From NCBI GenBank assembly GCA_963777315.1, contig CAVZQC010000002.1:224001-288000 (forward strand): DNA of 64,000 nucleotides, given 5' to 3'. The position numbers and the translations under genes are program-made. Position 1 is the first letter of the stretch. Each line of letters begins with the position of its first letter. Shown here piece after piece: positions 4,117 through 26,707 of the stretch. The DNA is from Vulcanimicrobiota bacterium. Its GTDB lineage: Bacteria; Vulcanimicrobiota; Vulcanimicrobiia; Vulcanimicrobiales; Vulcanimicrobiaceae. The notes below the pieces were generated by a model. The model was not told where the DNA came from. It was given only the letters and a program-made list of their open reading frames with translations, and searched no databases.

Positions 4117-4126
4117 TCTTGGGCGA

Positions 4127-6081: not shown

Positions 6082-6121
6082 CCGGGCTTTCGGCGCGTCG
6101 CGCGAAGACCCCCGGTCGCGC

Positions 6122-7118: not shown

Positions 7119-8069
7119 CTACCGTGCGAGAACCGGCTCCCCGCTGCGTCCAAGCGCGTATCCGACGAGGCGCTCGACCAGTGCATCGTACGATATGCCG
7201 ACCGCACCGCAGGCATCCGGCAGCAGGCTGGTGGGCGTCAACCCCGGGAGCGCGTTGATCTCCAGCACGTAAGGACGCCCCTCGTTGCTCACGATGAAGT
7301 CGGTGCGCGAGTAATCGCGCAACCCGAGCAAGCGATGCGTGGAAAGCGCGAGCATTTGAAGCCGCGCGGCCAGATCCTCGCCGATCTTGGCGGGAACGAT
7401 GTGCGTGCTTCCGCCCGGTGCGTACTTGGCTTCGTACGTGTAAAACTCGTCGCGGTTGGCGACGATCTCGATGAGCGGGAGCGCTTCCTCGCCCAAAACG
7501 CCGCAGTGCAGCTCGCGTCCGGGAATGAACTCCTCGGCGACGATTTCGGTGTACTCTTCGGCCGCCTGGATCATTGCCTGCGTCCATTGTTCGTGCGTCC
7601 TGACGATCGAAACGCCCTTGCTGCTGCCTTCGTAACGCGGTTTGACGACCAGCGGCAGGTCGAGCGAACCGGGCAACAGCGGAAGCGTACCGCCCGTGAG
7701 ATCGAAGAGATCCCACGCCGCCGTCGGCAGGCCTTCGGCGGCGCAAAGTTTCTTGGTCAAATGCTTGTCCATCGCGAGCGCCGCGGATTCGATGCCGCTG
7801 CCCGTATACGGAATGCGCAGGTACTCCAGGATGCCTTGAATCTGGCCGTCCTCGCCGCCCGGACCGTGCAGCGCGTTGAACACGACGTCGGGCCGCATTT
7901 CCCGCAGCGCGTCGATAAAGCGGTGATCGTAGTCGATGGGCTGCGCATCGTATCCGAGATCGTGCAATGCGCGCATGACGCCCGAGCCGGTCTGAATCGA
8001 AACTTCCCGCTCGGCGCTGCTGCCGCCCATCGCGACGGCGACTTTGGCTTTCTGCTTACTCTTGGTCAT
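7119..8069 (-). CDS. ddl: D-alanine--D-alanine ligase
   Basis: GGSSAEREVS, LHGPGGEDG, MDKHLTK, GSSKG, YEAKY, LEINALPGLT. Confidence 0.95.
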   Translation of the reverse strand: MTKSKQKAKVAVAMGGSSAEREVSIQTGSGVMRALHDLGYDAQPIDYDHRFIDALREMRPDVVFNALHGPGGEDGQIQGILEYLRIPYTGSGIESAALAMDKHLTKKLCAAEGLPTAAWDLFDLTGGTLPLLPGSLDLPLVVKPRYEGSSKGVSIVRTHEQWTQAMIQAAEEYTEIVAEEFIPGRELHCGVLGEEALPLIEIVANRDEFYTYEAKYAPGGSTHIVPAKIGEDLAARLQMLALSTHRLLGLRDYSRTDFIVSNEGRPYVLEINALPGLTPTSLLPDACGAVGISYDALVERLVGYALGRSGEPVLAR

Positions 8070-9012
8070 CTACGAATACGCCGACCAGATGAACCTCCAT
8101 GGCAAGGTCTATGCCGAAACGATCGGCGACGGCGCGGTGCACGCGTGCGAGCAGCGTTGCGACGTCTTTTGCGCTCGCGCCGGCGACGTTGTTGATGAAA
8201 TTGGCGTGCAGCGGCGAAACTTCCGCGCCGCCTTCGCGCCATCCCTTGGCCCCGGCAGCTTCGATCAGACGCGCCGCCTTATCCCCCGGCGGATTGCGGA
8301 AACAGGAACCGGCATTGGGCAGCGCGATCGGCTGCGTATCCTTGCGGCGCACCAGGCGCCGCTGCAGCTCTGCGCGCACCTCTTTCGGATCCGCGCGCTC
8401 GAACCGCAACGTTACCCGCGAAACGACGGCGTCGCGAGAAAGCGACGTGTGGCGATAGTAGTACTGCACGGTCACCGGATGCGGATCGGGTTTCGCGGGC
8501 GATTGCACCCACACTTCGCGCACGAATTCGCCGATCTCTTTGTCGGTGCCCGCGTTCATTCGCAGCGAACCGCCCACGCTGCCCGGAATACCGGCCAGCG
8601 AAGCGATCCCAAGCGCGCCGGCGGAAGCGGCTTTTGCGGTGAGCAGCGCCATCGAGGCCGAAGCCCCCGCGCCGACGACTACCGCGCCGTTTTCAACAGC
8701 CGCCGCGATCTTTGCGAACTCCCCGGACAAACGCAGCACCAAACCGCGAATGCCGCCGTCTCCGACCAGCAAATTGCTTCCGCTTCCAAGCACCATCCAC
8801 GGCGTTTTACGCCGGGCGCAGAATCGCATCAGCGCGCCGAGCTGCAATTCGCTTTCGACGACGACCCATGCATCGGCGGCGCCCCCGATCTTCCACGACG
8901 TGTATGGCGCAAGCGGTTCGTCGAAACGAACGCCTCCAGGACAGATGCCTTCCAGCTCGCGGCGATCGCCGTCGGTCAAGGCGCTCGCGGCGCCGGCAAC
9001 CGCGCAGCTCAT
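8056..9012 (-). CDS. murB: UDP-N-acetylmuramate dehydrogenase
   Basis: WKIGGAAD, LGSGSNLL, GIPGSVGG..RMNAG, QP...PNAGSCFRNP, HANFI. Confidence 0.95.
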   Translation of the reverse strand: MSCAVAGAASALTDGDRRELEGICPGGVRFDEPLAPYTSWKIGGAADAWVVVESELQLGALMRFCARRKTPWMVLGSGSNLLVGDGGIRGLVLRLSGEFAKIAAAVENGAVVVGAGASASMALLTAKAASAGALGIASLAGIPGSVGGSLRMNAGTDKEIGEFVREVWVQSPAKPDPHPVTVQYYYRHTSLSRDAVVSRVTLRFERADPKEVRAELQRRLVRRKDTQPIALPNAGSCFRNPPGDKAARLIEAAGAKGWREGGAEVSPLHANFINNVAGASAKDVATLLARVHRAVADRFGIDLAMEVHLVGVFVDDQE

Positions 9013-10379
9013 ACCGGAGCGCTCTCACGCACGTCGCGCGCGAGATTGGCGGCCACGCACGTTATATCTCCGGCGCCCAGCATCAGGACGAGCGCGTTGG
9101 CGGGCGCCCGGCGCGGAAGAACCGCGCGCAGATCCTCGACGCGCGAAACGTACTCCACGCGCGTTCCCATTCGCTCGAGCGGTTCACCGATGCTGCGTTC
9201 GCTCACGCTTTCGATCGGCGCTTCGCTCGCGGCGTAGATTGGCGCCAGATACACGCAATCGGCCGCGCTCAACGCGCGCGCGAACCCCTGCGCGAGATAC
9301 GCCGTACGCGTATAGCGGTGGGGCTGAAACCCGACGACGATCGGACCCTTGTGATATTGCTTGGCGGCAACGATCGTGGCTCTGATCGCGGTAGGATGGT
9401 GCGCATAGTCGTCCACGACGATCATGCGCGGGGTCTTTGCCAGAATTTCGAATCTGCGGCGCACCCCGCGAAACCGCTCGAGTGCCTGGGCGACTGTCGA
9501 AAACGGTACGCCGAGCGTGCGCGCCACGCAAATTGCCGCGAGCGCGTTTTCGATGTTGATCGCTCCGGGCACGTTCAGATGCGCGGTTCCCGCGCGCTGC
9601 CCTTCAACCATGACGTCGAACGACGATCCCAGATCGGCAAAGCGAATGTCTTCGGCGCGCACGCCGGCGTCGCACGCGATGCCGAACGTGACGGTGGGCG
9701 CGCGGCGCTTCGACCCCGCAATCGATCCGCTCTGCGGGTTGTCGACTCCAACGATGGCCGCGCCGTCCTCGGGCAGCTTGGCCAAAAATCGATCGAACGA
9801 GCTCACGAGCTTCGGCAGCTCGGTATCAGACGACAAATGATCGTTCTCGATATTCGTGACCACGCCGATCGCCGGATCGAGCAGCGCGAAGGATCCGTCC
9901 GACTCGTCCGCCTCGCTCAAAAACCACGGCGCGCTGCCGTCACTGGCGTTCGTGCCGGTTGCCACGTCGATGCCGCCCAGCACCAAACCGGCGTCGATGC
10001 CCGCGCCCCGCAAAATCGTAGCGGTCATGGCGGTAGTCGTGGTCTTGCCGTGCGTACCGCACACCGCGATGCCGCGCCGTCCTTCCATGACGCGCCGCAG
10101 CATCTCTCCGCGCGCCACGATTGGAATGCCACGCTGCGCCGCTCGGATGCATTCCGGGTTGTGCGGATCGATTGCCGAGCTGACCACGACTGCGGCCGCG
10201 CCGTTGACGTTGCTTTCGTCGTGCCCGATTGCAATGGTCATGCCCAGCGCGCGCAGCTCCTCGACGAGCGCGGACTCGCTCACGTCCGAGCCGGTGATTC
10301 GCTCTCCGCGGGCCAGCAGCACGCGCGCGATCGCGCTCATGCCGATTCCTCCGATGCCCACGAAGTGAAAGGATCTCAT
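9009..10379 (-). CDS. murC: UDP-N-acetylmuramate--L-alanine ligase
   Basis: HFVGIGGIGMSAIA, GTHGKTTTT, EADESDGSF, DDYAHHPT, FQPHRYTR. ATG at 10379 overlaps the murG stop. Confidence 0.95.
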   Translation of the reverse strand: MRSFHFVGIGGIGMSAIARVLLARGERITGSDVSESALVEELRALGMTIAIGHDESNVNGAAAVVVSSAIDPHNPECIRAAQRGIPIVARGEMLRRVMEGRRGIAVCGTHGKTTTTAMTATILRGAGIDAGLVLGGIDVATGTNASDGSAPWFLSEADESDGSFALLDPAIGVVTNIENDHLSSDTELPKLVSSFDRFLAKLPEDGAAIVGVDNPQSGSIAGSKRRAPTVTFGIACDAGVRAEDIRFADLGSSFDVMVEGQRAGTAHLNVPGAINIENALAAICVARTLGVPFSTVAQALERFRGVRRRFEILAKTPRMIVVDDYAHHPTAIRATIVAAKQYHKGPIVVGFQPHRYTRTAYLAQGFARALSAADCVYLAPIYAASEAPIESVSERSIGEPLERMGTRVEYVSRVEDLRAVLPRRAPANALVLMLGAGDITCVAANLARDVRESAPV

Positions 10380-11491
10380 GTTTTGACGGCCTTTCGCGAC
10401 ACGAGCGCGTCTATCCGCGCGACGATTGTCGCGACGGGATCGCCCGGTGCAAGCGAGCGGGCAGCGCTGCTCATCGCGCTCAGGCGCTCGGGCTGCATGA
10501 TTGCCCGCAGCGACCACCACAGCGCATCGCCGTCGAGGTCGCGATCTTCGATGACCGCGCACGCTCCGGCGGTCTCGAACGCTCGCGCGTTGTGCGCCTG
10601 ATGATCGTCTGAAGCGAACGGATAGGGCACCAGAATCGAGGGGACGCCCAATGCGGCCAGCTCTCCTAGAGTCGAGGCTCCGGAACGCGCGATCGCCACG
10701 TCGGCAAGCGCGTACGCGTCGGCCATGTCGTGCACGTACGGCACCAACGTCACGCGGTTGCCGCCGAACGGCTCGCGCTCTTGCGCACGCACTTGCGCGT
10801 AATTGCGTTCGCCGCTCACGTGCAGGATCTGCCAGTCCGACGGGAGAGCGCGCCGCGACACCAAGGCTGAAACCGCAGCATTGATCGAACGCGCGCCTTG
10901 GCTGCCGCCCATCGCCAGGATCGTGCGGCGGCTAGGGTCCAGGCCTAAGCGCAGCGCCGCTTGCGTTCGTTCGGCCGGACGAAACAGCGATGAGCGCACC
11001 GGAATTCCCGTTTTGACGAACTTGCTCGCAAAGCGGGAATCGGGCGCGTCGAAAGCGCCCCACACTTCGTCGACGAGCGGCGCCAAAAGGCGGTTGGTCA
11101 AACCGGGACGCGCGTTGGGTTCGAGCAGCGCGAGAGCCGGACGCTTCGCGCGACCCCGCAGCAGCTTGGCAGCAGCCATGACCGGAAAACACACGTATCC
11201 GCCGGTTGCCACGACGGCGTCGGCAGAAAATCCACGCAGCAAGCGCATCGCCTGCGCGATGCCCAAGGCATTGGCGCCTATCGTTTGCAGCGCCGCGGGC
11301 GACAAGGTGCGCCGCAGCGAACGCGCCGAGATCGTTTCGAGCTCGTATCCGGCCGCCGGCACGATCGCCGTTTCCAAGCGATCCACCGTGCCGACAAAGC
11401 GGATCCGCGCACGCGGGGCGAGCGCGTCCGCCAGCGCGATTGCCGGATAGAGATGTCCCCCCGTCCCTCCTGCGGCAAAGAGCACGTTCAT
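10376..11491 (-). CDS. murG: Undecaprenyl-PP-MurNAc-pentapeptide GlcNAc transferase
   Basis: GGTGGHLYP, TGGYV, GIPVR, GGSQGA, RSGASTLGE, HQAHNA. Confidence 0.95.
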   Translation of the reverse strand: MNVLFAAGGTGGHLYPAIALADALAPRARIRFVGTVDRLETAIVPAAGYELETISARSLRRTLSPAALQTIGANALGIAQAMRLLRGFSADAVVATGGYVCFPVMAAAKLLRGRAKRPALALLEPNARPGLTNRLLAPLVDEVWGAFDAPDSRFASKFVKTGIPVRSSLFRPAERTQAALRLGLDPSRRTILAMGGSQGARSINAAVSALVSRRALPSDWQILHVSGERNYAQVRAQEREPFGGNRVTLVPYVHDMADAYALADVAIARSGASTLGELAALGVPSILVPYPFASDDHQAHNARAFETAGACAVIEDRDLDGDALWWSLRAIMQPERLSAMSSAARSLAPGDPVATIVARIDALVSRKAVKT

Positions 11492-11525
11492 GCAATCTAG
11501 CGTCCTGAGTCGGAAGTTGAGGACA

Positions 11526-12692
11526 CTAGGACAAATCGATGCGGCGGTGGCGGCCGACATTCATGATCAGCGCGACGGCGATGAGCGAAACGATCAGCGA
11601 GCTGCCTCCGAAGGAAATGAACGGCAGCGGCACGCCCGTTACGGGCCACGACGACGACACCACGCCGATATTGACGAACGCCTGAATGACGATCGTCGCC
11701 GCGCAGCCGATCGCGAGAAAGAATCCGAACCGGTCGGGCGACGCGACGGCAATGCGAACCGCGCGATAGGCAAACGCAACGAACAGCACGATCACGGTCA
11801 GCGTGCCCAGCAAACCGAGCTCTTCGCCCAGCACCGAGAAGATGAAGTCGGTGTACTGTTCGGGCAGATAAAAAAACTTCGCGCGCGATTCTCCCAGGCC
11901 GACGCCCAAAAGGCCGCCGCTTCCCAGCGCGAGCAGCGACTGCACGATGTGGAAGCCCGTGTTTTGCGGGTCTTTCCAGGGATCGACGAACGCAAAGATG
12001 CGCGCGCGCTTATACGGGCTGGCCAAAACGGTCAGCACGGCGGGCGGCACGGTGACCATCGCGATCAGAAGCAGATGCTCGATGCGGGCGCCTGCGGCGA
12101 ACAGCAGCACGAACGCGGTAAAGACCACCAAGGTCGCGGTCCCCATGTCCGGTTCCACCAGCACCAGCAGCGCCACGAACAGCACCAGCATGCACAGCGG
12201 AAACAACCCTCGCCCCAGCGACGTGATGCGATCGCCTCGCACCGACAGCACGGCGGACAGGTACACCACCAAGGCCAGTTTGGCGAACTCCGAAGGCTGC
12301 AGCGAAAGCATGCCGGCGCCGATCCAGCGCCGAGCGCCGTTCACCGCCACTCCGACGTGCGGGATCAGCACCGCCACCAATGCAAGGATGCATGCCAGCA
12401 GCGCATACGGTGCAACGGCTTTGAGCTTGCGGTAATCGATGCGATAGGCCATGTAAGCGAGCACCAAGCCGACGACCAAAAAAATCGTTTGATGCTTGAC
12501 GTAATAGGCGGTATCGCGATGGTCCGCATAAGCTTGCGCGCTCGATGCGCTAAAGATCATCACCAGGCCAATCGCGACCAAGATCGCCACCGCGGCAAAA
12601 AGTATGGTGTCCGGCGGCGCTGAAACGAAAGCGCGCGCTGCCTGAGCACGCGCGGGCTTGGGTTTTGACGCGAGCTGTGCGGCGGCTTTCAT
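11526..12692 (-). CDS. ftsW: SEDS peptidoglycan polymerase FtsW
   Basis: Multi-TM protein with NGARRWI, QPSEFAK, EPDMGT, LPEQYTDFIF, TGVPLPFISFGGSS, in dcw context. Confidence 0.93.
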   Translation of the reverse strand: MKAAAQLASKPKPARAQAARAFVSAPPDTILFAAVAILVAIGLVMIFSASSAQAYADHRDTAYYVKHQTIFLVVGLVLAYMAYRIDYRKLKAVAPYALLACILALVAVLIPHVGVAVNGARRWIGAGMLSLQPSEFAKLALVVYLSAVLSVRGDRITSLGRGLFPLCMLVLFVALLVLVEPDMGTATLVVFTAFVLLFAAGARIEHLLLIAMVTVPPAVLTVLASPYKRARIFAFVDPWKDPQNTGFHIVQSLLALGSGGLLGVGLGESRAKFFYLPEQYTDFIFSVLGEELGLLGTLTVIVLFVAFAYRAVRIAVASPDRFGFFLAIGCAATIVIQAFVNIGVVSSSWPVTGVPLPFISFGGSSLIVSLIAVALIMNVGRHRRIDLS

Positions 12693-14141
12693 CTACGCCG
12701 TCGTCCTGACCTTATCGGAAGGAGGCGCCCCCAGCGCGTTTACCGCCGCCGCGAATTTTGTGCCGCGGTCCTCGGCCGATTCGAACATGTCGAACGAGGC
12801 GCACGCCGGCGAAAGCAGCACGATCGATCCGGGCTTGGCCAGACACGCGGCGCGCCGCACTGCATCCTCCATCGAACCGGCGCGCTCGATCGGCGTGCGG
12901 TACACGTGCGCGGCCAAATCGTCCGCGGCTTGGCCGATTGTCACCAGCGCCTGCGCGCGCTGATCGATCGCGCGGCCCAGCTCGGTAAAATCGGTATTCT
13001 TGGCTTTGCCGCCCGCAATGAGCACGACGGGTTGCGCGTAAGCCGCCAGAGCGGCGATTGCGGAGCCGGGATTGGTGGACTTGGAATCGTCGACGTACAG
13101 TACGCCGTCCACCGTTCGCACCGGCTGCAGGCGGTGCGCCATGGCGGTAAAGCTCGCGACGGCCGCGCGAAGGCCGCGGTGATCGATGCCGGCGCCCAAG
13201 CTCGCGAGCATTGCAGCCATCACGTTGTGCACGTTGTGCCGACCGGCCAGCGGAATATCGCCGGTGCGCAGCAACTCCACGGGCCGCGGATCCCCCGTGA
13301 GCGGCGCGTACACGATCGTGTCGCCCTGCAGATACATCGATGCGTGCTCGTGCCTGGGACCCAGCGTATACCACAGTTGGCGCGCGTGAACGCGCGTTTC
13401 TCCGGTATGCCAGTGCAGCTCGCGCAGTCGCGGGTCATCGAAATTGCCCACGAACACGTCGGATTCGCTTTGATTGGCGAAAATCCGGTATTTGGCTTCG
13501 GCATACTCGTCCATCGAGTAATACCGGTCGAGATGATCCGGCGAGATGTTGAGAATGACTGCGACGCGAGGCCGGAACGCTCGAATCGCTTCCAGTTGAA
13601 AGGACGACACTTCGGCGACGACCCAATCTTGCGGCCGGGCTTGAATCGCTTCGCGAATGAGCGGGTTGCCGATGTTGCCTCCGACGTGCACCGTGCACGC
13701 ATCGCCCGGTGCGCCGCACTGCCGCAGCAGATGCCCGATCAGCGCCGTCGTCGTGGATTTGCCTTTGGTTCCGGTAACGGCGACAATCGGCGCTCGGCAT
13801 AAACGATAGGCGACCTCGATTTCGCTGTACACCGGAACGTTCGCATCCTGCACGCGGCGCACGAAGCCGCCGTTGAGCGGAACGCCCGGAGAAAGCACGG
13901 CTATCGTTATGCCCGGCAGCACGCTCTCGAGCTGGTCGGGCTCGACGAACGTCGCGCCGAACTCTTGCGCGCGCGCGAGCGCCTGCGCGAGCTGCTCGCG
14001 CGGTTTTTCGTCCACGGCGTACACGCGCGCGCCGCGCGCGCGCAGAATCTCCACGGTCGCCTGGCCGCTGCGGCCCAGCCCGATGACAAGCACCGTTTCG
14101 CCGGCCGAAAAAGAATGGTTTGCGCTGCCGTGCAGATTCAT
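12693..14141 (-). CDS. murD: UDP-MurNAc-L-Ala--D-glutamate ligase
   Basis: VIGLGRSG, SPGVP, TGTKGKSTTT, GGNIG, EVSSFQL, PDHLDRY, DDSKSTN, LLSPACASFD. Confidence 0.95.
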   Translation of the reverse strand: MNLHGSANHSFSAGETVLVIGLGRSGQATVEILRARGARVYAVDEKPREQLAQALARAQEFGATFVEPDQLESVLPGITIAVLSPGVPLNGGFVRRVQDANVPVYSEIEVAYRLCRAPIVAVTGTKGKSTTTALIGHLLRQCGAPGDACTVHVGGNIGNPLIREAIQARPQDWVVAEVSSFQLEAIRAFRPRVAVILNISPDHLDRYYSMDEYAEAKYRIFANQSESDVFVGNFDDPRLRELHWHTGETRVHARQLWYTLGPRHEHASMYLQGDTIVYAPLTGDPRPVELLRTGDIPLAGRHNVHNVMAAMLASLGAGIDHRGLRAAVASFTAMAHRLQPVRTVDGVLYVDDSKSTNPGSAIAALAAYAQPVVLIAGGKAKNTDFTELGRAIDQRAQALVTIGQAADDLAAHVYRTPIERAGSMEDAVRRAACLAKPGSIVLLSPACASFDMFESAEDRGTKFAAAVNALGAPPSDKVRTTA

Positions 14142-15106
14142 CGCACTATCGCCAGCCCCACGCCCGAGAGCACGGCGGACGCGAGCCAAAACCGTGCCGT
14201 TACTTTGGTTTCCGGCCAGCCGCCCAATTCGAAATGGTGATGCAGCGGGCTCATACGCAGCACGCGCTTGCCGTGCGTGCTCTTGAAGTAGGCAACTTGC
14301 ACGATCACCGACAACGCCTCGGCAACGAACACGCCGCCGATCAGGATGAGCAGCAGCATTTCACCGCTCAAAATTGCAAGCCCGGACAGCAGTGCGCCCA
14401 GCGCCAGCGACCCCGTGTCGCCCATGAACATCCGCGCCGGATACCGGTTGTAACTCAGAAAGCCGAAGCATCCGCCGATGCCCAAGACCGCAACGACCGG
14501 CCAAGTCGTCGCCGCAATTGCGCCCATGTCGAGCGCGACGATCAGCAAGACGATCAGCGGCGGAATCACCGTTCCCGTCACCAGACCGTCCAAGCCGTCC
14601 GTGAGGTTGACCGCGTGAACGCAGCCGGTAACGGCGAAAATTCCCAGCAGCAGCCAGAGCCAGTGGGGGACCGTAAGCGCGTACGCACCGGCGTGAAAGA
14701 TCGTATCGCGCGGGAAGATCGATGCCGAAGCCGTGATGAGGCGCAGAAAGATCACCGCCGCAAGCGCAGTCAGCAGGTATTTGGTGCTGGCGCGCAGCCC
14801 GGTGTTTCTTCCACGTTTGATCCCCAAGGCATCGTCGGCAAAGCCGATCGCCGCGCACGCGAAGACGAGCGCGAGCAGCCAGAGCGTGAGCGCGTCGAAA
14901 CGGGCAAACGCGGGCAGCAGCGCGGCCAGAATCGCAAGTCCACCCATTGTGGGCGTGCCGGTTTTTTGCCGGTGCGTCTGCGGCGCATCCTCGTAGGCGG
15001 TCTGCCGAACCTGCAGCCGCGGCAGCGTTGCAAGCAGCAGCGCACCGGTCGCAACGGCGATGAAGAATCCGATGAACAGCGTGACGATAACGGATACGGG
15101 CGTCAT
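14138..15106 (-). CDS. mraY: Phospho-MurNAc-pentapeptide transferase
   Basis: KTGTPTMGG, GFADD, AVNLTDGLDGL, MFMGDTGSLALG, MSPLHHHFEL. Confidence 0.95.
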   Translation of the reverse strand: MTPVSVIVTLFIGFFIAVATGALLLATLPRLQVRQTAYEDAPQTHRQKTGTPTMGGLAILAALLPAFARFDALTLWLLALVFACAAIGFADDALGIKRGRNTGLRASTKYLLTALAAVIFLRLITASASIFPRDTIFHAGAYALTVPHWLWLLLGIFAVTGCVHAVNLTDGLDGLVTGTVIPPLIVLLIVALDMGAIAATTWPVVAVLGIGGCFGFLSYNRYPARMFMGDTGSLALGALLSGLAILSGEMLLLILIGGVFVAEALSVIVQVAYFKSTHGKRVLRMSPLHHHFELGGWPETKVTARFWLASAVLSGVGLAIVR

Positions 15107-15807
15107 GCAGCGCCTTGCTCGAACAGCGGGTTCGACGCGTCGGCCCGCCATTTGAGCACGACGATGGGCGTCTGTTCGTCGCCGTTGCCGTGCGGGTTGG
15201 AAAGCAGCGCGCACTCGACGGCGCGGCGATTCACGCCGCGGGAGGCGCCCAGCACTTTGGCTTTTTCCAAATCGTTTGCATCGACCACGCACGCCGCGAT
15301 CCCTGTACGATCGCAGAGGACCTGCGCAAACGCGCCGGGATCTTGCGGCGCGAAAACGATCGTGCGCTCAAATGGCGGCAAGGTGCCGGTATAACCATCG
15401 ATTGCGGCGATCGATTCCCCCATGATCTCGTAAAAAACGCCGCGTTTGCCCAGCGCCCGCCCGGCGACGTGCGCGATCGACGCATACAGCACTTTGGCGG
15501 CGCCCGCACGATCGATCACGATCTGCAGCGACTCGGGTTGGTTGACGGTAGCCAGCGCGCCGGCGCGGCGCGAAAGAAAATACGCCATCGGCGAAGGGCG
15601 CACGTATTCGGCCGGCACCGATTGGCCCTGCGCTATCGCAACGGCCGTTTCCGAAATCGCCAGCACGTCGCCGGAGCGCGCAATACCTGCAGTCGCGCGC
15701 GCAACCAGCTCGACGAGATCGTCGCCGGGCTGCACGAGCCGCGTACGAACCGGAAGCGCGACGATGCCGGGCGGCACTTCGGTGCGCTCGACGCGCAAAC
15801 TTCTCAT
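15103..15807 (-). CDS. CofE / F420-0:gamma-glutamyl ligase-like protein embedded in the dcw operon
   Basis: LPVRT..VQPGDDL, DVLAISE.AVAIAQG, IDG..G.LPPF, VVDANDL, NPHGNGDEQTPIV resemble the F420_ligase (CofE-like) family. 4-nt ATGA overlaps with both murF and mraY. Confidence 0.72.
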   Translation of the reverse strand: MRSLRVERTEVPPGIVALPVRTRLVQPGDDLVELVARATAGIARSGDVLAISETAVAIAQGQSVPAEYVRPSPMAYFLSRRAGALATVNQPESLQIVIDRAGAAKVLYASIAHVAGRALGKRGVFYEIMGESIAAIDGYTGTLPPFERTIVFAPQDPGAFAQVLCDRTGIAACVVDANDLEKAKVLGASRGVNRRAVECALLSNPHGNGDEQTPIVVLKWRADASNPLFEQGAA

Positions 15808-17180
15808 GCGATCTCACTGGTCTCACGCAGCGCTGAAACGATCTCCTCCATCTTGTACTTGCGCGACCCTTTGAGCAGCACCACATCCGCAGCACGGGCA
15901 TGCCGGCGCAGCCAGCTCGCCGCTTCGGCGTTGCGGGCGTACGTGACGATGCGGTCCTGCGGCAAACCTGCGCAAACCGCTCCCCGCGCGAACGATCCGG
16001 CATACTCGCCGCCCGCGAGCAGAATGTCCACGCCGGTCCGCGCGGCGTGCGCCCCGACTCGCTCGTGCATCGCGGGCGCATCGGTTCCCAGTTCCGCCAT
16101 GCTCGCCAAGACCGCGATGCGCCGCTCGGCGGCTTCGCCGGCAAAAGCGTCCAGCGCCGCGATCATGCCGGTCGCGTTTGCATTGTATGCATCGAAGATC
16201 AGCTGCATGCCTCCGGCCACGGCAACGCGCTCGTAACGCCCAGGGGGCAGCGTGAGAGCCGGCACGGCGCCGATCAAATCTTCGGGTTCGATACCCAACG
16301 CGAGCGCTGCAGCCAGAGCGGCGGCCAGATTCGCCCGATTGTACGATCCGGGGACGCGCACGTCGATCGCAAACTCGCGCGGGGTGCGCCCATAGGTGAG
16401 CATCAGCGTACCCGAGCCACTCAGGAGGACCCCGTGTTCGACCGCTTCGCCGGTGCCGAACCACAGCGGCGGAGCGGAAAGCGACGCCGCGCGCGCGACC
16501 GATTCCGGATCGCCGGCATTGAGAACGGCCTGCGCGCCCTGGGAAAACAATCCCCATTTCGTGCGCGCCAAGCGTTCACGCGATCGGAAGATCTCCAGGT
16601 GCGCTTCGCCGATGTTCGTGAGCACGCCGATATGCGGGCGCGCGATCCGCACGAGCGCGGCAATCTCGCCGTCGTGGCGGGCACCCATTTCGACGACGAG
16701 CACGCGCTGATCCGGTCCCGCGTTCAGCAGCAGCTTGCTCACGCCGATCTCGTTGTTCTCGTTTGCCGGCGAGGCGAGCACGCTATCCACCCCGTACTGC
16801 ACCGCCAGAAGCTGCGCTAAAAAGTGCTTGGTCGTCGTTTTGCCCGTGCTGCCCGTGATCCCGACGACCGAACCTTCGTACGCGTCGCGTGCGGCGGCCG
16901 CCAGCTCCATGTAGGCGCGTTTCGTGTCGGCGACCAGCAGAGCCGGAACGCCTTCCAGCGCGGCGCGCGCGTCGTCGATGACGATGGCTGCCGCGCCTTT
17001 GTCCACGGCGTCGCGCACGTAGTCGTGTCCGTCGAAGCGCTCGCCGCGCAGGGCCAAAAACGTATCGCCTGCTGCAATCTCGCGCGTGTCGGTGGTAACG
17101 TGCAATTGCGAGGGGAACCGGTGCGCGCTCAGCAGTCGGCCCGCCGTCGCGCGGACGGCCGTCTCAAGCGCGAGGCTCAT
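15804..17180 (-). CDS. murF: UDP-MurNAc-tripeptide--D-Ala-D-Ala ligase
   Basis: FLALRGERFDGHDY, GITGSTGKTTTK, NENNEIG, EMGA, DAYNAN, LLKGSR. Confidence 0.95.
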   Translation of the reverse strand: MSLALETAVRATAGRLLSAHRFPSQLHVTTDTREIAAGDTFLALRGERFDGHDYVRDAVDKGAAAIVIDDARAALEGVPALLVADTKRAYMELAAAARDAYEGSVVGITGSTGKTTTKHFLAQLLAVQYGVDSVLASPANENNEIGVSKLLLNAGPDQRVLVVEMGARHDGEIAALVRIARPHIGVLTNIGEAHLEIFRSRERLARTKWGLFSQGAQAVLNAGDPESVARAASLSAPPLWFGTGEAVEHGVLLSGSGTLMLTYGRTPREFAIDVRVPGSYNRANLAAALAAALALGIEPEDLIGAVPALTLPPGRYERVAVAGGMQLIFDAYNANATGMIAALDAFAGEAAERRIAVLASMAELGTDAPAMHERVGAHAARTGVDILLAGGEYAGSFARGAVCAGLPQDRIVTYARNAEAASWLRRHARAADVVLLKGSRKYKMEEIVSALRETSEIA

Positions 17181-18643
17181 CGACGGGCCGCCTGCCGTTG
17201 CGCGAGCGCTTGGCGCGCTTGCGCCAGATCGTCGAACGGCAGAACCTCGCCGCTCACGATTTGATAGTTTTCGTGACCCTTGCCCGCGATCAGCACGACG
17301 TCGCCCTCCCGGGCCGCGTCGATCGCCGCTTCGATTGCCTCGCGGCGATCGACGCGCACCGCGTGCGGCGCGTTACCTATTCCGGGAAGAATCTGATCGA
17401 TGATGCTCTGCGGATCTTCGCCGCGAGGATTGTCCGACGTCACGTAACTGAAGTCCGCATAGCGCGCCGCAGCGGAACCCATCTGCGGGCGTTTGCCCGA
17501 ATCACGATCTCCGCCGCAGCCGAATACGGCAATCAGCCGGCGCGCCGCCGTTTCGCGAAGCGTGCGCAGCGCGTTTTCGAGCGCATCGGGCGTGTGCGCG
17601 TAATCGACGACCACGTCGATGCCGTCTGCACGCACGTGTTCCATTCTTCCGGGGATGCGCTCCAGGTCCGCAAGTCCTTCAGCGGCGAGTTCGTCGCTCA
17701 CCCCGAGCGTTTTTGCCGCGCCGATCGCGCACAGCGCATTGGCGACGTTGAACCTGCCGGGGATCCGAACTTCGAAGCGGCGTCCTTGCAAGTAAAAGAT
17801 GCTTGCGTCCGGCCGCAGGTCGATGCTTTCCGGCCGCAGGTCGGCCTGCGCTCGCAGCGCGTACGTCGTGACTGGCTTGTGCGCGCGCAACTGCAGCGCC
17901 CATCGGTTGCCCAACTCGTCGTCGGCGTTGAACACGCAGCACTGCGCGAGATCGAACAGTTTACGCTTTGCCGACGCATACGATTCAAAACGCTTGTGGA
18001 AATCCAAATGGTCGCGCGTCACGTTCGTGAGCGCGCCCACGCGTATGCGCACGTCGGAAACCCGCTGCAGCGCAAGCGCGTGCGAGCTCACCTCCATTGC
18101 CGCGGCCCGGGCGCCGGAATCACGCATTTGCGCGAGCAGATCCTGCAGCTGCGGGGCAGGCGGCGTCGTATTCTCGAGCGGCCAGGTTTGCCGGTCGAAG
18201 GCGGCGCCGATCGTGCCGATGAGTCCGCACGGCATGCCCGCCGCGTTCAGGATTGCCGCAATCATGTGCGTTGCCGTCGTTTTGCCGTTCGTTCCCGTAA
18301 CGCCGGCAACGGCGATGTCGTCGGAGGGCCTGCCGTAGAACGCGGCGGCGAGTTGCGAAAGCGCGCGCGCGGAATCGCGCACGACGATCGACGTTACCGC
18401 CGGCGGCACTTCGCACGGCTCTTCGGTCACCACCGCAGTTGCACCGCGCTCGACGGCCTGCGCGACGAACCGGTGGCCGTCGGTCTGCAGGCCGCGCAAT
18501 GCGACGAACATGCTTCCTCGTCCGGCCCGGCGCGAATCCGCGACGACGGCGTGAACCATGCTGCTCGCCGGACCATCCACGCTCAGAACGTCGTCGAGCG
18601 CCTGCAGCAGCAACTCCAATGCGACGCTTCGCCGGCCTTCCAT
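17177..18643 (-). CDS. murE: UDP-MurNAc-dipeptide--meso-diaminopimelate ligase
   Basis: GVTGTNGKTT, TTP, MEVSSHAL, RDHLDFH, DYAHTPDAL, GCGGDRD, SDNPR (meso-DAP specificity motif), AGKGHE. Confidence 0.95.
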   Translation of the reverse strand: MEGRRSVALELLLQALDDVLSVDGPASSMVHAVVADSRRAGRGSMFVALRGLQTDGHRFVAQAVERGATAVVTEEPCEVPPAVTSIVVRDSARALSQLAAAFYGRPSDDIAVAGVTGTNGKTTATHMIAAILNAAGMPCGLIGTIGAAFDRQTWPLENTTPPAPQLQDLLAQMRDSGARAAAMEVSSHALALQRVSDVRIRVGALTNVTRDHLDFHKRFESYASAKRKLFDLAQCCVFNADDELGNRWALQLRAHKPVTTYALRAQADLRPESIDLRPDASIFYLQGRRFEVRIPGRFNVANALCAIGAAKTLGVSDELAAEGLADLERIPGRMEHVRADGIDVVVDYAHTPDALENALRTLRETAARRLIAVFGCGGDRDSGKRPQMGSAAARYADFSYVTSDNPRGEDPQSIIDQILPGIGNAPHAVRVDRREAIEAAIDAAREGDVVLIAGKGHENYQIVSGEVLPFDDLAQARQALAQRQAARR

Positions 18644-18647
18644 ATCG

Positions 18648-20414
18648 TCAACGAATATTCGCCGCGGGCACCGCTTTTGCCGCCCGGCCGGCTGCGACGG
18701 TGCTCGGCAACACGCCCGCGTGCAGCATTGCCGCTTTGGCGATTTGAACGAAAGCCGGCGCAGCGACTATCGACCCGTAAATGGCTCCCTGCGGCTGCTC
18801 GACTTTGACGTAGATGACGTAGCGCGGATGTTCGTACGGGACCATGCCGATGAAGGACGCTACGTACGACCCCGGATCGTATTGGCCGTTCACGACCATT
18901 TGCGCGGTCCCGGTCTTTCCGGCGGTCGCGTAGCCCGGAATCTGCGCGGACGGATTGCCGGTGCCGCGCACCACCACTGCGCGCAAAAAACTGCGCAGCA
19001 CGGCTGCGGTATGCCGCGAGAAGACGCGGCGCTCGATCTGCGGCGGATATGTATAGATTGGACGACCGCTTGCGTCGAGGATGGACCGAACGATCTGCGG
19101 GCGCATGACGAGTCCGCCATTGGCAATGGCGCAGTAGTAGCGAGCCATCTCGATCGGCGTTACCGAAACCCCTTGCCCGAACGCCATCGTGGCCAGCGAG
19201 CTTCCGCTCCACTCTGCCGGAGGCGGAACGATTCCGGGGCTTTCACCTGCCAGGCCGATTTGCGTAGCCTCCCCGAATCCGGCGCGCCGCTCCATGGCGT
19301 AGAACGTGCGGCCTCCGACGAACCGCCCGACGTTGGCGATGCCGACGTTGAGCGAATCGGCAATAATCGTTTCCAGCGTATCGCCGGCGGGATTGGGCGT
19401 CAGACCGTCGACCGCGTTGTAAATTCGCCGGCCTCCCACTTCGAGCGGGCCGACCGCATCGAAGCGCCGCGTAAGCGAAACTTTTCCGCTGTCGATTGCC
19501 GCCGCTGCCGTAACCAATTTGAACGTGGACCCCGGTTCGTACGCATCCTGAACCGCGCGGTCGCGATAATCGTCGGCGGGGAATTTCCAGTACGCGTTCG
19601 GATCGAAGTGCGGCGCATTGGCCATCGCCAGCACTTCGCCGGTCGAGGGGTCCATGACGATCGCCGTTCCGCTGCGCGCGTGATACGTCTTGACCTGCTT
19701 TTCGAGCGCGGCTTCGGTAACGAATTGCAAATAGGAATCCAGCGTGAGCTGCAGCGATAGTCCGGGCTTTGCCGGTTTGACGACGCGCTCGTGGCCGAAC
19801 GGAATGGGCATTCCGAATTCATCGGCTTCGATCGTGACGCGCCCAGACGATCCTTTCAGGAGATCGTCGAACGTATATTCCAGACCGCTCAGGCCGTTCT
19901 CGTCGATGCCGACGAAGCCCAAAATCGTCGAAGCGCTGCGGCCCGCGAGGTCGACGCGCCTGCCCGTGTCTTCCTCCATCAGCGCTATGCCGGGCAAATT
20001 CAGCGCCTGCACCTTGTCGGCTTGGTCGTGCGGAATCTTGCGCGCGATCCAAACGAACTGCAGATGGCGATCGTGCAGCAGGCTCGCCGTCGCCGTGTCG
20101 ATCTTGCCGACGATACGATCGAGCTGCGCAATAGCGCTATCGGGGTTGGTCAAGTCGTGCGGTACGGCATAGACGCTTTCGGACGGAAGCGAACGAACCA
20201 GCACGGTGCCGTAGCGGTCCAGGATGCTGCCGCGGCGAGCAAAAACTTCAATCGTATCGCTGCGCTGCGCGAGCGCCTCTTTTGCGTAGACCGGCCCTTT
20301 GACCAGCTGCACGTACGAAAGCCGCCACGACAGGAACGCGGCGATCGCGAACAGTCCGTAAAAGAAAGCTTTGGCGCGGCGGGGGCCGACGCGCGCGAAC
20401 GTGCGCTTGTGCAA
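18648..20414 (-). CDS. ftsI: Class B penicillin-binding protein (FtsI/PBP3-type)
   Basis: N-terminal TM, RRGSILDR, GLSGLEY, EPGSTFK (SxxK), SLN (SxN), KTGTAQ. TTG start inferred just after the ftsL stop. Confidence 0.9.
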   Translation of the reverse strand: MHKRTFARVGPRRAKAFFYGLFAIAAFLSWRLSYVQLVKGPVYAKEALAQRSDTIEVFARRGSILDRYGTVLVRSLPSESVYAVPHDLTNPDSAIAQLDRIVGKIDTATASLLHDRHLQFVWIARKIPHDQADKVQALNLPGIALMEEDTGRRVDLAGRSASTILGFVGIDENGLSGLEYTFDDLLKGSSGRVTIEADEFGMPIPFGHERVVKPAKPGLSLQLTLDSYLQFVTEAALEKQVKTYHARSGTAIVMDPSTGEVLAMANAPHFDPNAYWKFPADDYRDRAVQDAYEPGSTFKLVTAAAAIDSGKVSLTRRFDAVGPLEVGGRRIYNAVDGLTPNPAGDTLETIIADSLNVGIANVGRFVGGRTFYAMERRAGFGEATQIGLAGESPGIVPPPAEWSGSSLATMAFGQGVSVTPIEMARYYCAIANGGLVMRPQIVRSILDASGRPIYTYPPQIERRVFSRHTAAVLRSFLRAVVVRGTGNPSAQIPGYATAGKTGTAQMVVNGQYDPGSYVASFIGMVPYEHPRYVIYVKVEQPQGAIYGSIVAAPAFVQIAKAAMLHAGVLPSTVAAGRAAKAVPAANIR

Positions 20415-20419
20415 GGGCC

Positions 20420-20854
20420 TTACTTCGCGCCGAACAGAGTCGCGAGATTCGAGAGAAACGCCAAATGGGAGCGATCGGGCGCGCGCACCGTCGCCGGAAG
20501 CGTGACGACCGCAAACTGCTGCGGATCCTGCATGTGCAAGCGCGCCGCTACGGTCGCCAGACGATCGTCCGAGCGCAGCGCCGCGAGCCGGTTGTCCAGG
20601 ACCGCGCTTTCGGCGGCAAGCGTGGCGCGTTCGTGCTGCGCCTTTGCGACGGCATAATTCAAGCTGGTCAGGCGCGCCATCAGCATGACGTAGACCATGA
20701 CCAAACAAAGCGATATCGCGAGCACCGCGCAAAAGCGCGACAGGCCCGCGTATCGCGCGCGCTCTTTGCGCGTGATGCGGCGCAGCGTTGCGGATTTTGC
20801 CGTGCGCACGTTGGAGGGACGCGGCTTGGTACGTTCCTTGGGTTGGGCGATCAT
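20420..20854 (-). CDS. ftsL: Cell division protein FtsL-like
   Basis: Basic N-terminus, single TM, heptad coiled coil. Lies between rsmH and ftsI. Confidence 0.75.
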   Translation of the reverse strand: MIAQPKERTKPRPSNVRTAKSATLRRITRKERARYAGLSRFCAVLAISLCLVMVYVMLMARLTSLNYAVAKAQHERATLAAESAVLDNRLAALRSDDRLATVAARLHMQDPQQFAVVTLPATVRAPDRSHLAFLSNLATLFGAK

Positions 20855-21730
20855 TCAGCTTGCCTTACGCTGGGCGGCGCGCAGTTTCGCGCTGCGGGCC
20901 CGTGGATTGCTTGCGCTTTCGGCTTCGCCCGGCACGATCGGTTTGCGGGTGAGCACCTCCAAGCGTTCGTCGTCGCGAAACGCATGTTTGACGATTCTGT
21001 CTTCAAGCGAGTGAAAGCTGATTGCCACGATGCGTCCCGCCGTGCGCAAACGGCCGGCCGCCGTGTCGACGCTTTCGCGCAGCGCGTCCAATTCGTCGTT
21101 GACCGCTATGCGCAGCGCTTGAAAGACCCGGGTGGCGGGATGAATGCGTTCGCGCCGGCCGGGGCGATGCAAAAGCCCGCTGATCATTTGCGCGAATTCC
21201 ACGGTCGTATCCGGCAACGTCCCTTGGCTGCGGCGGTGCACGATCGCGCGCGCTATCTTTCTCGCGCCGCGTTCCTGTCCATACTGAAAGAAGATGTCGG
21301 CGAGTTCGCCTTCGCTCGCGTTCATCAGCACGTCGTAGGCGCTGCGTCCGCAGCTCGGGTTCATGCGCATGTCCAGCGGTGCGGATTGGCGGAACGAAAA
21401 GCCCCGCGAAGCGTCATCAAGTTGCATCGACGAAACTCCCAAGTCGTAAAGCACGCCGTCGACCGAATCGATGCCAAGCCGGTCCAGCGCCGCCGACAGC
21501 TGCCGGAAGTTGGAAGGCACGAAGGTGAATGCGGACTCGCAAACGGCGAGCGCCCGCGCCTGCGCCTGCGGATCGGCATCGAGCGCAATGAGCCGGCCGC
21601 CCCGTAAGCGCTCCAAGATTCCCCGGCTGTGGCCGCCCGCACCGAAGGTCGCATCGACGTAGACCCCATCCGGCCGGATCGCCAAGCAGCTCAAAGCCGC
21701 TTCGTACAGGACCGGGACATGCTGCTCCAT
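20855..21730 (-). CDS. rsmH: 16S rRNA m4C1402 methyltransferase
   Basis: HVPVL, DATFGAGGHS, DLGVSSMQLD, PLDMRM, FQALRIAVNDEL, SFHSLEDRIVK, NPRARSAKLR. Confidence 0.96.
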   Translation of the reverse strand: MEQHVPVLYEAALSCLAIRPDGVYVDATFGAGGHSRGILERLRGGRLIALDADPQAQARALAVCESAFTFVPSNFRQLSAALDRLGIDSVDGVLYDLGVSSMQLDDASRGFSFRQSAPLDMRMNPSCGRSAYDVLMNASEGELADIFFQYGQERGARKIARAIVHRRSQGTLPDTTVEFAQMISGLLHRPGRRERIHPATRVFQALRIAVNDELDALRESVDTAAGRLRTAGRIVAISFHSLEDRIVKHAFRDDERLEVLTRKPIVPGEAESASNPRARSAKLRAAQRKAS

Positions 21731-21745
21731 CCGTCCACCCCGGCA

Positions 21746-22189
21746 TCAGTAGAGTCCCAAATCCGCCATAAAGTCGGCCATCTCGCCCTCCGGCGCCGCG
21801 TGCTCGGCGTACCGTTCCTTGGCCCATACCTCGACGCGGCTTAAGGTGCCCACCGAAACCACGTCGCGTTCGATCCCGGCGTAGGTCCGCAGCGCGCCCG
21901 GCACGAGCAGGCGGCCTTGGGCGTCGCACGCCACGTCTTCGGTGCGCGCGAAGAGGTGACGCACGAACCGCCGGAACGCGACGTCCTTCACGGGCGCCGT
22001 TTCCAAGCGGGCGCAAAACTCGCCCCAGGTCGCCTGGGGGTAGAGCGCCAAGCACGGCTCGGGCGGCGCGATCGTTAAGATGAAGCCATTGCCGAGCCGC
22101 TCGCGGAACCGCGCAGGTACGATGAGGCGGCCCTTATCGTCAAGAGCATGCTCCACCGAACCGGAAAAGCGCGGTAGGTCCGCGTGCAA
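21746..22189 (-). CDS. mraZ: Division/cell-wall cluster transcriptional repressor MraZ
   Basis: DDKGRLIVPARFR and DAQGRLLVP repeats, VEVW. SD GGAGG upstream of the TTG start. Confidence 0.95.
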   Translation of the reverse strand: MHADLPRFSGSVEHALDDKGRLIVPARFRERLGNGFILTIAPPEPCLALYPQATWGEFCARLETAPVKDVAFRRFVRHLFARTEDVACDAQGRLLVPGALRTYAGIERDVVSVGTLSRVEVWAKERYAEHAAPEGEMADFMADLGLY

Positions 22190-22325: not shown

Positions 22326-22423
22326 TGACGCGATTAGTGCGACCTAATCGCGTCAGTGTGTGGCGCGATTATTGGCAAGACGCGATCGTTCCGGTATAAT
22401 TGCGTCAAAATATGACGCGATTA
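22326..22423 (+). promoter_or_regulatory. Fic gene promoter (TTGGCA-N17-TATAAT) overlaid by six copies of a TGACGCGATTA-like motif
   Basis: -35 at 22372-22377, -10 at 22395-22400. Motif copies start at 22326(+), 22345(-), 22361(+), 22378(+), 22397(-), 22413(+). Confidence 0.75.
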
Positions 22424-23500
22424 TACATATGGGAACAGGCAGACTGGCCGACTTTTTCGTATGACGCTGCCCGCTTGCTAACTGCCGTGGGAAACGCCCG
22501 AAGGGCGCAAGGGCGCCTCGCTGAGGCAATGGCGCGAGTCGGGTTCGCGGAGCGAGAAGAAGCCTTTCTTGAGACGCTCACAACAGACGCGGTTGAAACA
22601 AGCAAAATTGAGGGCGAGAACCTCGACTACGCCGCGGTACGCTCCTCGGTAGCGGCGCGTCTAGGAATGCCGCATGCCGCGATCGCCCCCACCGACGCAC
22701 GTACTGAAGGGATCGCCGTCATGGTGCTTGACGCAGTCGAGAATTACGATAAGCCGCTTACGGCGGAGCGGATTTTCAGTTGGCATGTCGAGCTGTTCCC
22801 CGGCAAACGCGAAGCCGTCATTGGCAATTGGCGCCCGGGCCCTGTCGGCGTTTACCGCTACGGCCGCGTGGACCAACCGCCAACTACCGAGTACATGGCC
22901 CCGCCTGCGGAGCGTGTCGCCACCGAAATGCAGCGCTTCTTTGATTGGTTCAACGCGCGAAGCGATACCGACGGCATCATGCGCAGTGCGCTTGCGCACC
23001 TATGGTTCGTAACGATCCATCCATTTGAGGACGGCAACGGTCGCATTGCGCGCGCTATAGCAGATATGGCATTGGCCCAAGACGAACACTCAGCTCGCCG
23101 CTTCTTCAGTATGTCTCGCCAAATCCGTGAGGAGCGCAAACACTACCACGCCATACTCAAAGAAACGCAGCACGGGCAGCTGGACGTTACGTCATGGCTT
23201 GAATGGTTCTTGCAGTGTTACGAAAGGGCGGTGCGGAGCGCTATGGACACGCTTGGGCGCGTGCTTGATGTGAATACATTTTGGGCCCGCCACGGTTCCG
23301 TAACGTTTACCGATCGCCAGCGTAAGGCGCTGACACATGTATTACACGGGTTCAAAGGCGCCATTACGACAAAGAATTGGCAACGCCTGGCGCAAACCTC
23401 ACGCGAAAGCGCCACACGCGACTTAAGCGATCTCGTGCAAAAAGGCGTGCTGCGCTCCGAAGGTGCTGGAAGGTCGACCCGTTATCAATTGCTTGAGTGA
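22412..23500 (+). CDS. Fic family protein (DUF4172-type N-terminus + Fic + C-terminal winged HTH)
   Basis: YIWEQADWP N-terminus, SKIEG inhibitory-type motif, HPFEDGNGRIAR catalytic motif, SRESATRDLSDLVQKGVL..GAGRSTRY wHTH. Codon usage is more A/T-rich than its neighbours. Confidence 0.92.
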   Translation: MTRLYIWEQADWPTFSYDAARLLTAVGNARRAQGRLAEAMARVGFAEREEAFLETLTTDAVETSKIEGENLDYAAVRSSVAARLGMPHAAIAPTDARTEGIAVMVLDAVENYDKPLTAERIFSWHVELFPGKREAVIGNWRPGPVGVYRYGRVDQPPTTEYMAPPAERVATEMQRFFDWFNARSDTDGIMRSALAHLWFVTIHPFEDGNGRIARAIADMALAQDEHSARRFFSMSRQIREERKHYHAILKETQHGQLDVTSWLEWFLQCYERAVRSAMDTLGRVLDVNTFWARHGSVTFTDRQRKALTHVLHGFKGAITTKNWQRLAQTSRESATRDLSDLVQKGVLRSEGAGRSTRYQLLE

Positions 23501-23644: not shown

Positions 23645-24130
23645 GTGTCACTGCGTCGCGCGGTGGCTTGCGAGGCTGCTGCCTTATCGGACTTGGCGTT
23701 CCGATCGAAGGCCCGCTGGGGCTACGACGAGAGGTTCATGAATCAGGTGAAAGACGCTCTATCGGTGTCTCCGCAATACCTCGAGCAGGATCCGGTATAC
23801 GTTCTACTGCGCGGTGGAATGATTGTCGGCTTTTTTGGGTTCCTGTCGCAGCCCAGCGAAACGCTTCTCAACGATTTCTGGCTCGAGCCGGAAGTCATTG
23901 GAACTGGTGTCGGGCGCGTAATGTGGGAACACGCCGTCCGGCACGCGCGCGCCAATGGTTGTCGCGCCTTTGCTATCCACAGTGATCCAAACGCTGAAGG
24001 GTTCTACCTTCATATGGGAGCGCGCCGTATCGGTACGAGAATTGCACTAGAAACAGGACGCGAATTGCCGTTGCTAGAGTACGACGTACTTCCGGAGCGG
24101 CACGAGTCCACGTCGCAAACGATAGTCTAG
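23645..24130 (+). CDS. GNAT family N-acetyltransferase
   Basis: RSKARWGYD, LEPEVIGTGVGR (acetyl-CoA motif A), SDPNAEGFYLHMG. Confidence 0.85.
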   Translation: MSLRRAVACEAAALSDLAFRSKARWGYDERFMNQVKDALSVSPQYLEQDPVYVLLRGGMIVGFFGFLSQPSETLLNDFWLEPEVIGTGVGRVMWEHAVRHARANGCRAFAIHSDPNAEGFYLHMGARRIGTRIALETGRELPLLEYDVLPERHESTSQTIV

Positions 24131-26310: not shown

Positions 26311-26379
26311 ATTCTGGTGCCGCCGTATCTTTTGATAACGGCGGGTACGCACCTCGCCGGCCGCGGCTTAACGGGCTGG

Positions 26380-26631: not shown

Positions 26632-26707
26632 AGCACCATTAGCGTAGCGCCGGAGCGCCGGCGCCCGGAACGACTGGGGTGGCCATAAAACTGCGACTTT
26701 TCCGTCA

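Follow-up and report, generated by a model that had tools for sequence, protein, structure and literature searches.

A conserved CofE-fold protein encoded between murF and mraY in Vulcanimicrobiota, a candidate peptidoglycan-precursor ligase

Gene X in the dcw cluster and across the phylum

The window analyzed here, a stretch of 64,000 nucleotides from a Vulcanimicrobiota bacterium (contig CAVZQC010000002.1, positions 224,001 to 288,000), carries a dcw cluster (for division and cell wall) in which a gene that we call X separates murF from mraY. X is a single open frame of 234 codons, from ATG to stop, at 15103..15807 on the minus strand; open reading frame (ORF) analysis, Pfam, a structural model and structure searches identify its 234-residue product (P0002) as a CofE-fold protein and putative nucleoside triphosphate (NTP)-dependent amide ligase. 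An earlier note on this DNA had described a gene of this size that shares 4 nt with the end of murF and another 4 nt with the beginning of mraY, and the sequence confirms it, with ATGA at both ends: at 15804..15807, between the murF stop and the X start, and at 15103..15106, between the X stop and the mraY start (ATG at 15106), all on the minus strand. Hidden Markov models (HMMs) support both partners, the upstream murF (15804..17180, minus strand), which is fused to X in relatives, with 356 bits for TIGR01143 (cut-off 288.6), and the downstream mraY (14138..15106, minus strand) with 249.6 bits for TIGR00445 (cut-off 192). A plus-strand frame over 15103-15807 is open but has no start, and was rejected as a shadow of X.

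Comparison with 80 related loci, the best by likeness to X, revealed mraY downstream of X in 80/80 and murF upstream in all 78 with sequence on that side. Taking the nearest in-frame start, the -4 overlap recurs at 60/78 murF–X and 61/80 X–mraY junctions, and one locus (L078) encodes a MurF–X fusion. Against 10 close loci, the proportions of non-synonymous (pN) and synonymous (pS) differences are 0.154 and 0.584 for X, 0.223 and 0.600 for murF, and 0.222 and 0.641 for mraY, a comparison biased in favor of X by the choice of loci for their likeness to it. The recurrent -4 overlaps and the lower pN of X thus indicate that the gene and its coupling with murF and mraY are not due to chance. Close homologs of X are in Vulcanimicrobiota (Eremiobacterota) genomes, and the murF–X–mraY order is also found in both loci of the sister family. 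The dcw linkage put forward in the earlier note therefore stands for the class of the window, in which the 80 loci conserve it, but not for the rest of the phylum: in 18/18 loci of other classes X lies outside the dcw cluster, in a form of about 400 residues, and its neighbors are mostly unrelated genes.

X is a core gene of the phylum, matched in 298 of 301 genomes and in 237 of the 238 that are at least 90% complete; the tally includes seven unpublished genomes, entered in tallies only, and one of the 298 (G068) matches only through a canonical CofE. Two queries against 72,556 plasmid records gave no match to X and the viral contigs contained no relative, while the two matching records of the phage set both look like bacterial DNA. 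Six loci (L047, L057, L050, L065, L073 and L076), whose records bear titles of Verrucomicrobiia, Binatia, Acidiferrales or Rhodospirillales, have the murF–X–mraY block at 64–72% identity; they probably belong to Vulcanimicrobiota and were mislabelled. Next to X in about 10 of the 18 distant-class loci (L087, L090, L092, L093, L094, L096, L099, L100, L101 and L102; in L090 at 4118-6385) is a usually divergent gene of 480–830 residues with an S-N-S-R-Y-F-like start, the scanned copies of which have no Pfam or NCBIfam match.

The cluster as a whole (7119..22189, minus strand) reads mraZ-rsmH-ftsL-ftsI-murE-murF-X-mraY-murD-ftsW-murG-murC-murB-ddl; murE, murF, mraY and ddl were identified by HMM, and the other names (X aside) are those we presume from the ORF sequences. 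The DNPR motif that the earlier note had read in MurE is indeed present, as SDNPR (murE at 17177..18643, minus strand, from ORF and HMM), and we take it to mark the meso-diaminopimelate (meso-DAP) type. After ddl, in the usual place of ftsQ-ftsA-ftsZ, lies a 302-residue gene (6122-7030, minus strand) whose product begins like a signal peptide and matches nothing in Pfam or NCBIfam. Upstream of mraZ (22400-23500 and 24127-27631, both minus strand) are what we presume, by sequence only, to be Fic-like, heavy-metal P-type ATPase, small ferredoxin and CRP/FNR-like regulator genes.

Fold, active site and membrane features

Both profile and structure searches bear out the CofE fold that the earlier note had assigned to the protein. 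PF01996 (F420_ligase) matches X with 47.3 bits (cut-off 25), over residues 20–101 only. An AlphaFold2 model built from a 56-sequence alignment (predicted local distance difference test, pLDDT, 94.2; predicted template modeling score, pTM, 0.90) matched only chains of Archaeoglobus fulgidus CofE in Foldseek (5 matches, E ~1e-9, TM ~0.6), and VIA-align against 48,161 chains likewise singled out CofE (Z 15.1, root-mean-square deviation 3.2 over 185 residues), the next match having Z 4.4. No Mur-ligase or AsnB fold was matched in X by HMM or by structure (Pfam, NCBIfam, Foldseek and VIA-align).

Alignments to 2G9I/2PHN were used to map CofE residues onto X, with counts over 224 X domains. The equivalents of D150 and N152 are kept in 222/224 and 217/224 domains, S40 is replaced by Glu in 207/224 and G153 by Asp in 215/224, and K45, invariant in CofE, becomes hydrophobic (Ile/Val). 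In the window these positions include a D-A-N-D motif at codons 176–179 (15271..15282, minus strand), where D176 aligns with D150 and D179 stands in place of the F420-contacting G153. We take S40, K45 and D150 of CofE to be nucleotide and metal binders. Two further mappings, D137 to D109 and N208 to E208, were not recovered by profile alignment and are not used as evidence. From the conserved Asp to the last conserved Pro there are 38 residues in X and 63 in CofE, the 25-residue difference falling in the CofE hairpin region, and VIA-align aligned CofE only up to residue 226, which leaves the R234 region beyond the aligned part. CofE is reported to use acyl-phosphate chemistry with two Mn ions and an oxyanion-type glutamate pocket, and to contact F420 through G153–C155, F92, R234 and a domain-swapped hairpin (PMC10861534). 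Judged by these alignments, the F420-contacting parts are changed or missing in X, while by analogy with CofE the use of an NTP and acyl-phosphate chemistry would be retained. The loss of one Lys and the gain of two acids would lead one to expect a cationic amine instead of glutamate.

X also has a hydrophobic helix with basic flanks at codons 103–123 (15439..15501, minus strand; model and hydropathy) that is not found in CofE. The helix keeps this character throughout the family, with a median peak hydropathy of 1.77, compared with 0.65–0.89 in CofE, and is a candidate membrane contact. The long forms consist of an N-terminal membrane helix, an immunoglobulin (Ig)-like sandwich and then the ligase domain. 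The helix is present in 42/46 bacterial long forms and is followed by a segment richer in Lys/Arg than the one before it in 35/42, which, by the positive-inside rule, predicts a cytoplasmic ligase domain. The Ig-like domain gave only generic beta-sandwich fold matches (Z 7 or less) and no usable match in an Atlas search, and no stand-alone copy of it was found in the genome of the window (G000, 89.9% complete). In the Thermodesulfobium-like locus L105, a short X (L105:6001-6624) overlaps an upstream 159-residue gene with an N-terminal membrane helix (L105:5544-6023), possibly a split-off N-terminal module of the long forms; a profile built for the N-terminal module gave no match to this gene.

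A proposed reaction and its rivals

Fusions connect X to wall enzymes. Among 115 long homologs, 25 join MurF to X, 54 carry AsnB/glutamine-amidotransferase domains and five carry MraY; the X–MraY fusions (5/115) and the MurF fusion P0274 were not relied on, because P0297 and P0274 contain apparently frameshifted stretches. A phmmer search of 1.84 billion representatives returned 703 relatives, of which 150 were listed and 58 of these domain-scanned; six of the 58 are Amidase_3–X fusions, and others are single fusions to GNAT, polysaccharide deacetylase, M20 peptidase, CDP-alcohol phosphatidyltransferase, HD and adenylate kinase domains, besides several TPR proteins. Elsewhere X follows murB-ftsQ-ftsA-ftsZ-mreB-mreC and precedes an mreD-sized ORF without HMM match (L108), has ddl upstream (L095) or, as AsnB–X, directly precedes a dapA-like ORF with dapB nearby (L118). 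With the MurF, amidase and AsnB fusions, the cell-wall role suggested in the earlier note is likely.

Relatives of X, named from 30 looked-up proteins and the top matches, occur in Negativicutes (Sporomusa, Pelosinus, Propionispora, Thermosinus, Anaerospora and a Veillonellaceae bacterium), in other bacteria (Thermodesulfobium, Caldisericia, Oscillospiraceae, Actinomycetota, Roizmanbacteria and Synechococcus/Thermostichus) and in eukaryotes (Marchantia, Chlorokybus, Closterium, Chloropicon, Pycnococcus and Pseudoscourfieldia). In a tree of 60 rows, comprising 55 X domains (a chosen subset of the 224) and five CofE paralogs, the rows from plants and algae are nested with a named cyanobacterial row (support 99/95). 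The plant and algal proteins have no membrane helix; in three of the five the N-terminus resembles a transit peptide, being rich in Ser/Thr and Arg and poor in acidic residues. Marchantia and Chloropicon primus (PMC10784329) and class VII prasinophytes (PMC4815162) are reported to keep a plastid peptidoglycan toolkit.

These observations suggest that X probably carries out some ligation on a peptidoglycan precursor. Among the possible reactions we tentatively favor amidation of the stem D-Glu with a polyamine by a ligase at the membrane face. X would be a metal- and NTP-dependent carboxylate-amine ligase of the CofE fold, acting at the cytoplasmic face of the membrane on the precursor, after MurF and before the flippase. 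On lipid I/II or UDP-MurNAc-pentapeptide, X would activate a free carboxylate of the stem peptide by phosphorylation, most likely that of the D-Glu alpha-carboxyl, and would condense it with a cationic amine, for which putrescine, cadaverine, spermidine and an acetylated diamine are candidates. That the D-Glu alpha-carboxyl can carry polyamines is established in Negativicutes (PMC10628300, PMC5020339), with cadaverine in Selenomonas ruminantium (PMC5020339) and putrescine/cadaverine in Veillonella, where they are reported to be required for OmpM binding (PMC10628300). In Cyanophora, D-Glu is reported to receive putrescine while the precursor is membrane-bound, lipid II being the better substrate (PMC3266927, citing Pfanzagl 1999). 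G000 holds a Lys/Arg/Orn decarboxylase and a spermidine-synthase-family gene. We know of no sequence for a peptidoglycan polyamination enzyme and of no peptidoglycan chemistry for Vulcanimicrobiota, and the literature search, whose scope excluded subscription journals and bioRxiv supplements (and with them the genome paper of Selenomonas and the review by Kojima and Kamio, either of which could name a gene), found no paper naming such an enzyme or linking the X family to peptidoglycan; PMC12826042 and 10.1101/2020.06.11.147165 offered nothing on the enzyme either. In G000, PF02784 (LysA/ODC/SpeA fold) was not found (13/14 controls have one; MurE meso-DAP type), and the gene is possibly unassembled.

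Several observations weigh against polyamination of D-Glu by X, beyond the dcw-free loci of the distant classes. S. ruminantium, Veillonella parvula and Cyanophora, in which the modification is proven, are absent among the named matches listed (best 120). The AsnB fusions point to ammonia instead of a polyamine, the agmatinase-like match in G000 is below its cut-off, and the helix at codons 103–123 could be a dimer interface. UDP-linked precursors in moss are reported to be ordinary pentapeptides, with an unknown later modification proposed (PMC9434261), and this speaks against X acting in moss on the soluble precursor.

For a purpose in outer-membrane tethering, also raised in the earlier note, the evidence is mixed and the link weak. 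S-layer homology (SLH) domains were found in 23 of 34 genomes sampled, and in 7/17 of the window's family, the other 10 showing neither an SLH domain nor a full OmpM. Y36 and Y65, the proposed polyamine-binding residues of OmpM-like SLH domains, were placed in 24 copies by spacing from W34 and TRYE; equivalents of both are present in 7/7 copies from the window's family, 2/8 from sister families and 0/9 from distant classes, counts in which kin are not independent. The agreement within the family speaks for a polyamine as the amine. Against this, and against tethering, neither an SLH domain nor a full OmpM was found in G000, and Y36 occurs in only 2/8 sister-family and 0/9 distant-class copies although all of these have X. 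G000 also has a csaB-like pyruvyl transferase, and the X family extends to monoderm lineages. Cyanobacteria, too, carry X, yet their OmpM/SLH is reported to bind pyruvylated polymers instead of polyamines (10.1101/2021.05.31.446380). A 377-codon frame in G000 (C2:335268-336398) resembles only the C-terminal barrel of the OmpM-like SLH-porin of relatives, and has no SLH.

The alternative that survives best, which we consider possible but rather unlikely, is that X modifies the precursor but uses a different amine or a different site: it would add ammonia, delivered by an AsnB glutaminase either fused to it or separate, or else an amino acid, to a D-Glu or meso-DAP carboxyl in place of MurT/GatD or AsnB/LtsA. 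The dcw and fusion evidence fits this equally well, AsnB-type fusions make up 54 of the 115 long homologs, with one beside a dapA-like gene, and neither MurT (MurT_C) nor a full-length AsnB was found in G000. However, AsnB has a synthetase domain of its own, which would make a second ligase redundant for ammonia, and G000 has X with no AsnB partner. Nor does another amine or site explain by itself the retention of X across Negativicutes.

Considerably less likely is action on another envelope molecule at the inner membrane face, which could be a secondary wall polymer carried on a lipid, a lipid itself or a protein, with the place in the dcw cluster reflecting co-regulation only. The single fusions to polysaccharide deacetylase, CDP-alcohol phosphatidyltransferase, GNAT and M20 peptidase, the several TPR proteins, the csaB-like gene of G000 and the membrane anchor and Ig-like domain of the long forms are all compatible with such a role, and AsnB-like enzymes also amidate sugars. 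The recurrent fusions and the tight coupling nevertheless involve stem-peptide enzymes (MurF, amidase), and X is retained in plastids that keep peptidoglycan, for which we know of no secondary wall polymer.

Of marginally lower probability again is that X is an alternative gamma-glutamyl ligase for folate or another cofactor, as reported for the COG1478 member FolC2 (CT611), a folate ligase in Chlamydia (PMC4161248). Two observations favor this over a role in the wall. Folate genes adjoin X in five distant records: in L085 and L100 X is immediately followed by folD, which in L094 lies one ORF away; in L086 a homocysteine methyltransferase–MTHFR fusion comes after X, and in L117 fhs-fchA come before it. 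In addition, no folC was found in 37 of 151 genomes, which are all from distant classes (0/14 in family f5, 0/4 in f12, 0/3 in f17, 0/13 in f18, 0/1 in f8 and 0/1 in f15), and in G027, G009, G015, G032 and G006 both folC and a canonical CofE are missing from the matches. In the dcw-linked class, however, folC is present in 99/99 genomes as well as in that of the window, and in most of the genomes without folC there is a canonical CofE that could serve instead. TIGR04132 (folate gamma-glutamate ligase) does not match X at E 0.1, yet it scores 71.8 bits on canonical CofE; a membrane anchor would be needless for a soluble cofactor, and the folD linkages may all go back to a single inherited block. 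Families f5, f17 and f18 mostly have cofD-cofC-cofE with a luciferase-like monooxygenase (LLM) family oxidoreductase, and their canonical CofE may double as a folate glutamyl ligase.

That X is a true CofE glutamylating F420-0, as its fold, its Pfam match and automatic database names would have it, is highly improbable and largely refuted by genome content. The CofE model TIGR01916 gives X 32.7 bits (cut-off 180.65) and NF009809 gives 29.4 (cut-off 274), whereas a canonical CofE paralog reaches 261. G000 has one PF01996 gene, and no cofC, cofD or F420-dependent LLM gene was found in it by profiles and by tblastn with the proteins of a relative, a search that did not extend to cofG/cofH; a PF01933 match that might have been cofD is YvcK/GlmR beside rapZ. 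Among the other genomes of the class cofD is present in 0/99, and overall in 31/151. Full-length canonical CofE (184–241 bits) occurs in 14 of 36 genomes searched for PF01996, 13 of which also hold X, and in the four regions with cofD that were inspected it lies within a cofD-cofC-cofE run. In the 60-row tree, a long branch with 100/100 support separates the X rows from the CofE rows. X is thus a real, conserved and uncharacterized branch of the CofE fold that is misnamed F420 ligase in databases, and the earlier note was right to set it apart from F420 biosynthesis.

Possible polyamination and comparison with known systems

Returning to polyamination of the stem peptide, we put forward, more tentatively than the reaction itself, that the X branch is the peptidoglycan polyamination family: an ancient Terrabacterial ligase, CofE-like in fold and acting on lipid II, that Negativicutes, Vulcanimicrobiota and cyanobacteria share and that was inherited by plastids that keep peptidoglycan. 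If true, amine modification of the stem peptide would be far more common than known and would include an undescribed modification of plant chloroplast peptidoglycan, giving a handle on the unidentified modification proposed there (PMC9434261). Polyamines have been known on peptidoglycan since 1981, and in Negativicutes OmpM reportedly needs them to hold the outer membrane (PMC10628300); the small X family makes the enzyme missing for four decades directly testable. It would also extend the known peptidoglycan-modifying ligases by a new fold.

The nearest structural relative, A. fulgidus CofE, shares the fold and the D150 and N152 equivalents with X. The two differ in overall sequence (~21% identity), in S40, K45 and G153 (Glu, hydrophobic and Asp in X), in the shorter segment at the hairpin (38 versus 63 residues), in the extra hydrophobic helix of X and in the F420 pathway, of which neither cofC nor cofD was found in G000. 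AsnB/LtsA amidates stem peptides in an ATP-dependent reaction. MurT/GatD is likewise reported to amidate a stem-peptide carboxyl on lipid II using ATP (PMC3266927). Both systems resemble the proposed activity of X in amidating such a carboxyl; their folds are unrelated to that of X and neither was found in G000, while AsnB-type proteins are fused to X in other phyla. FolC2/CT611 of Chlamydia belongs to one superfamily with X and is reported to use a non-F420 substrate (PMC4161248), but X lacks the TIGR04132 match, is not in a folate cluster in the window's class and occurs there alongside folC (99/99). QimC of Streptococcus pyogenes is described as a CofE-fold protein of unknown role in a cell-wall-modification operon (PMC12803152); its operon is unlike that of X, and the likeness is by description, not by sequence. 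Closest to the reaction proposed for X are the polyamination reported in Selenomonas and Veillonella and the addition of N-acetylputrescine in Cyanophora, in which the D-Glu alpha-carboxyl is joined to an amine by an amide bond at a membrane-bound stage (PMC5020339, PMC10628300, PMC3266927).

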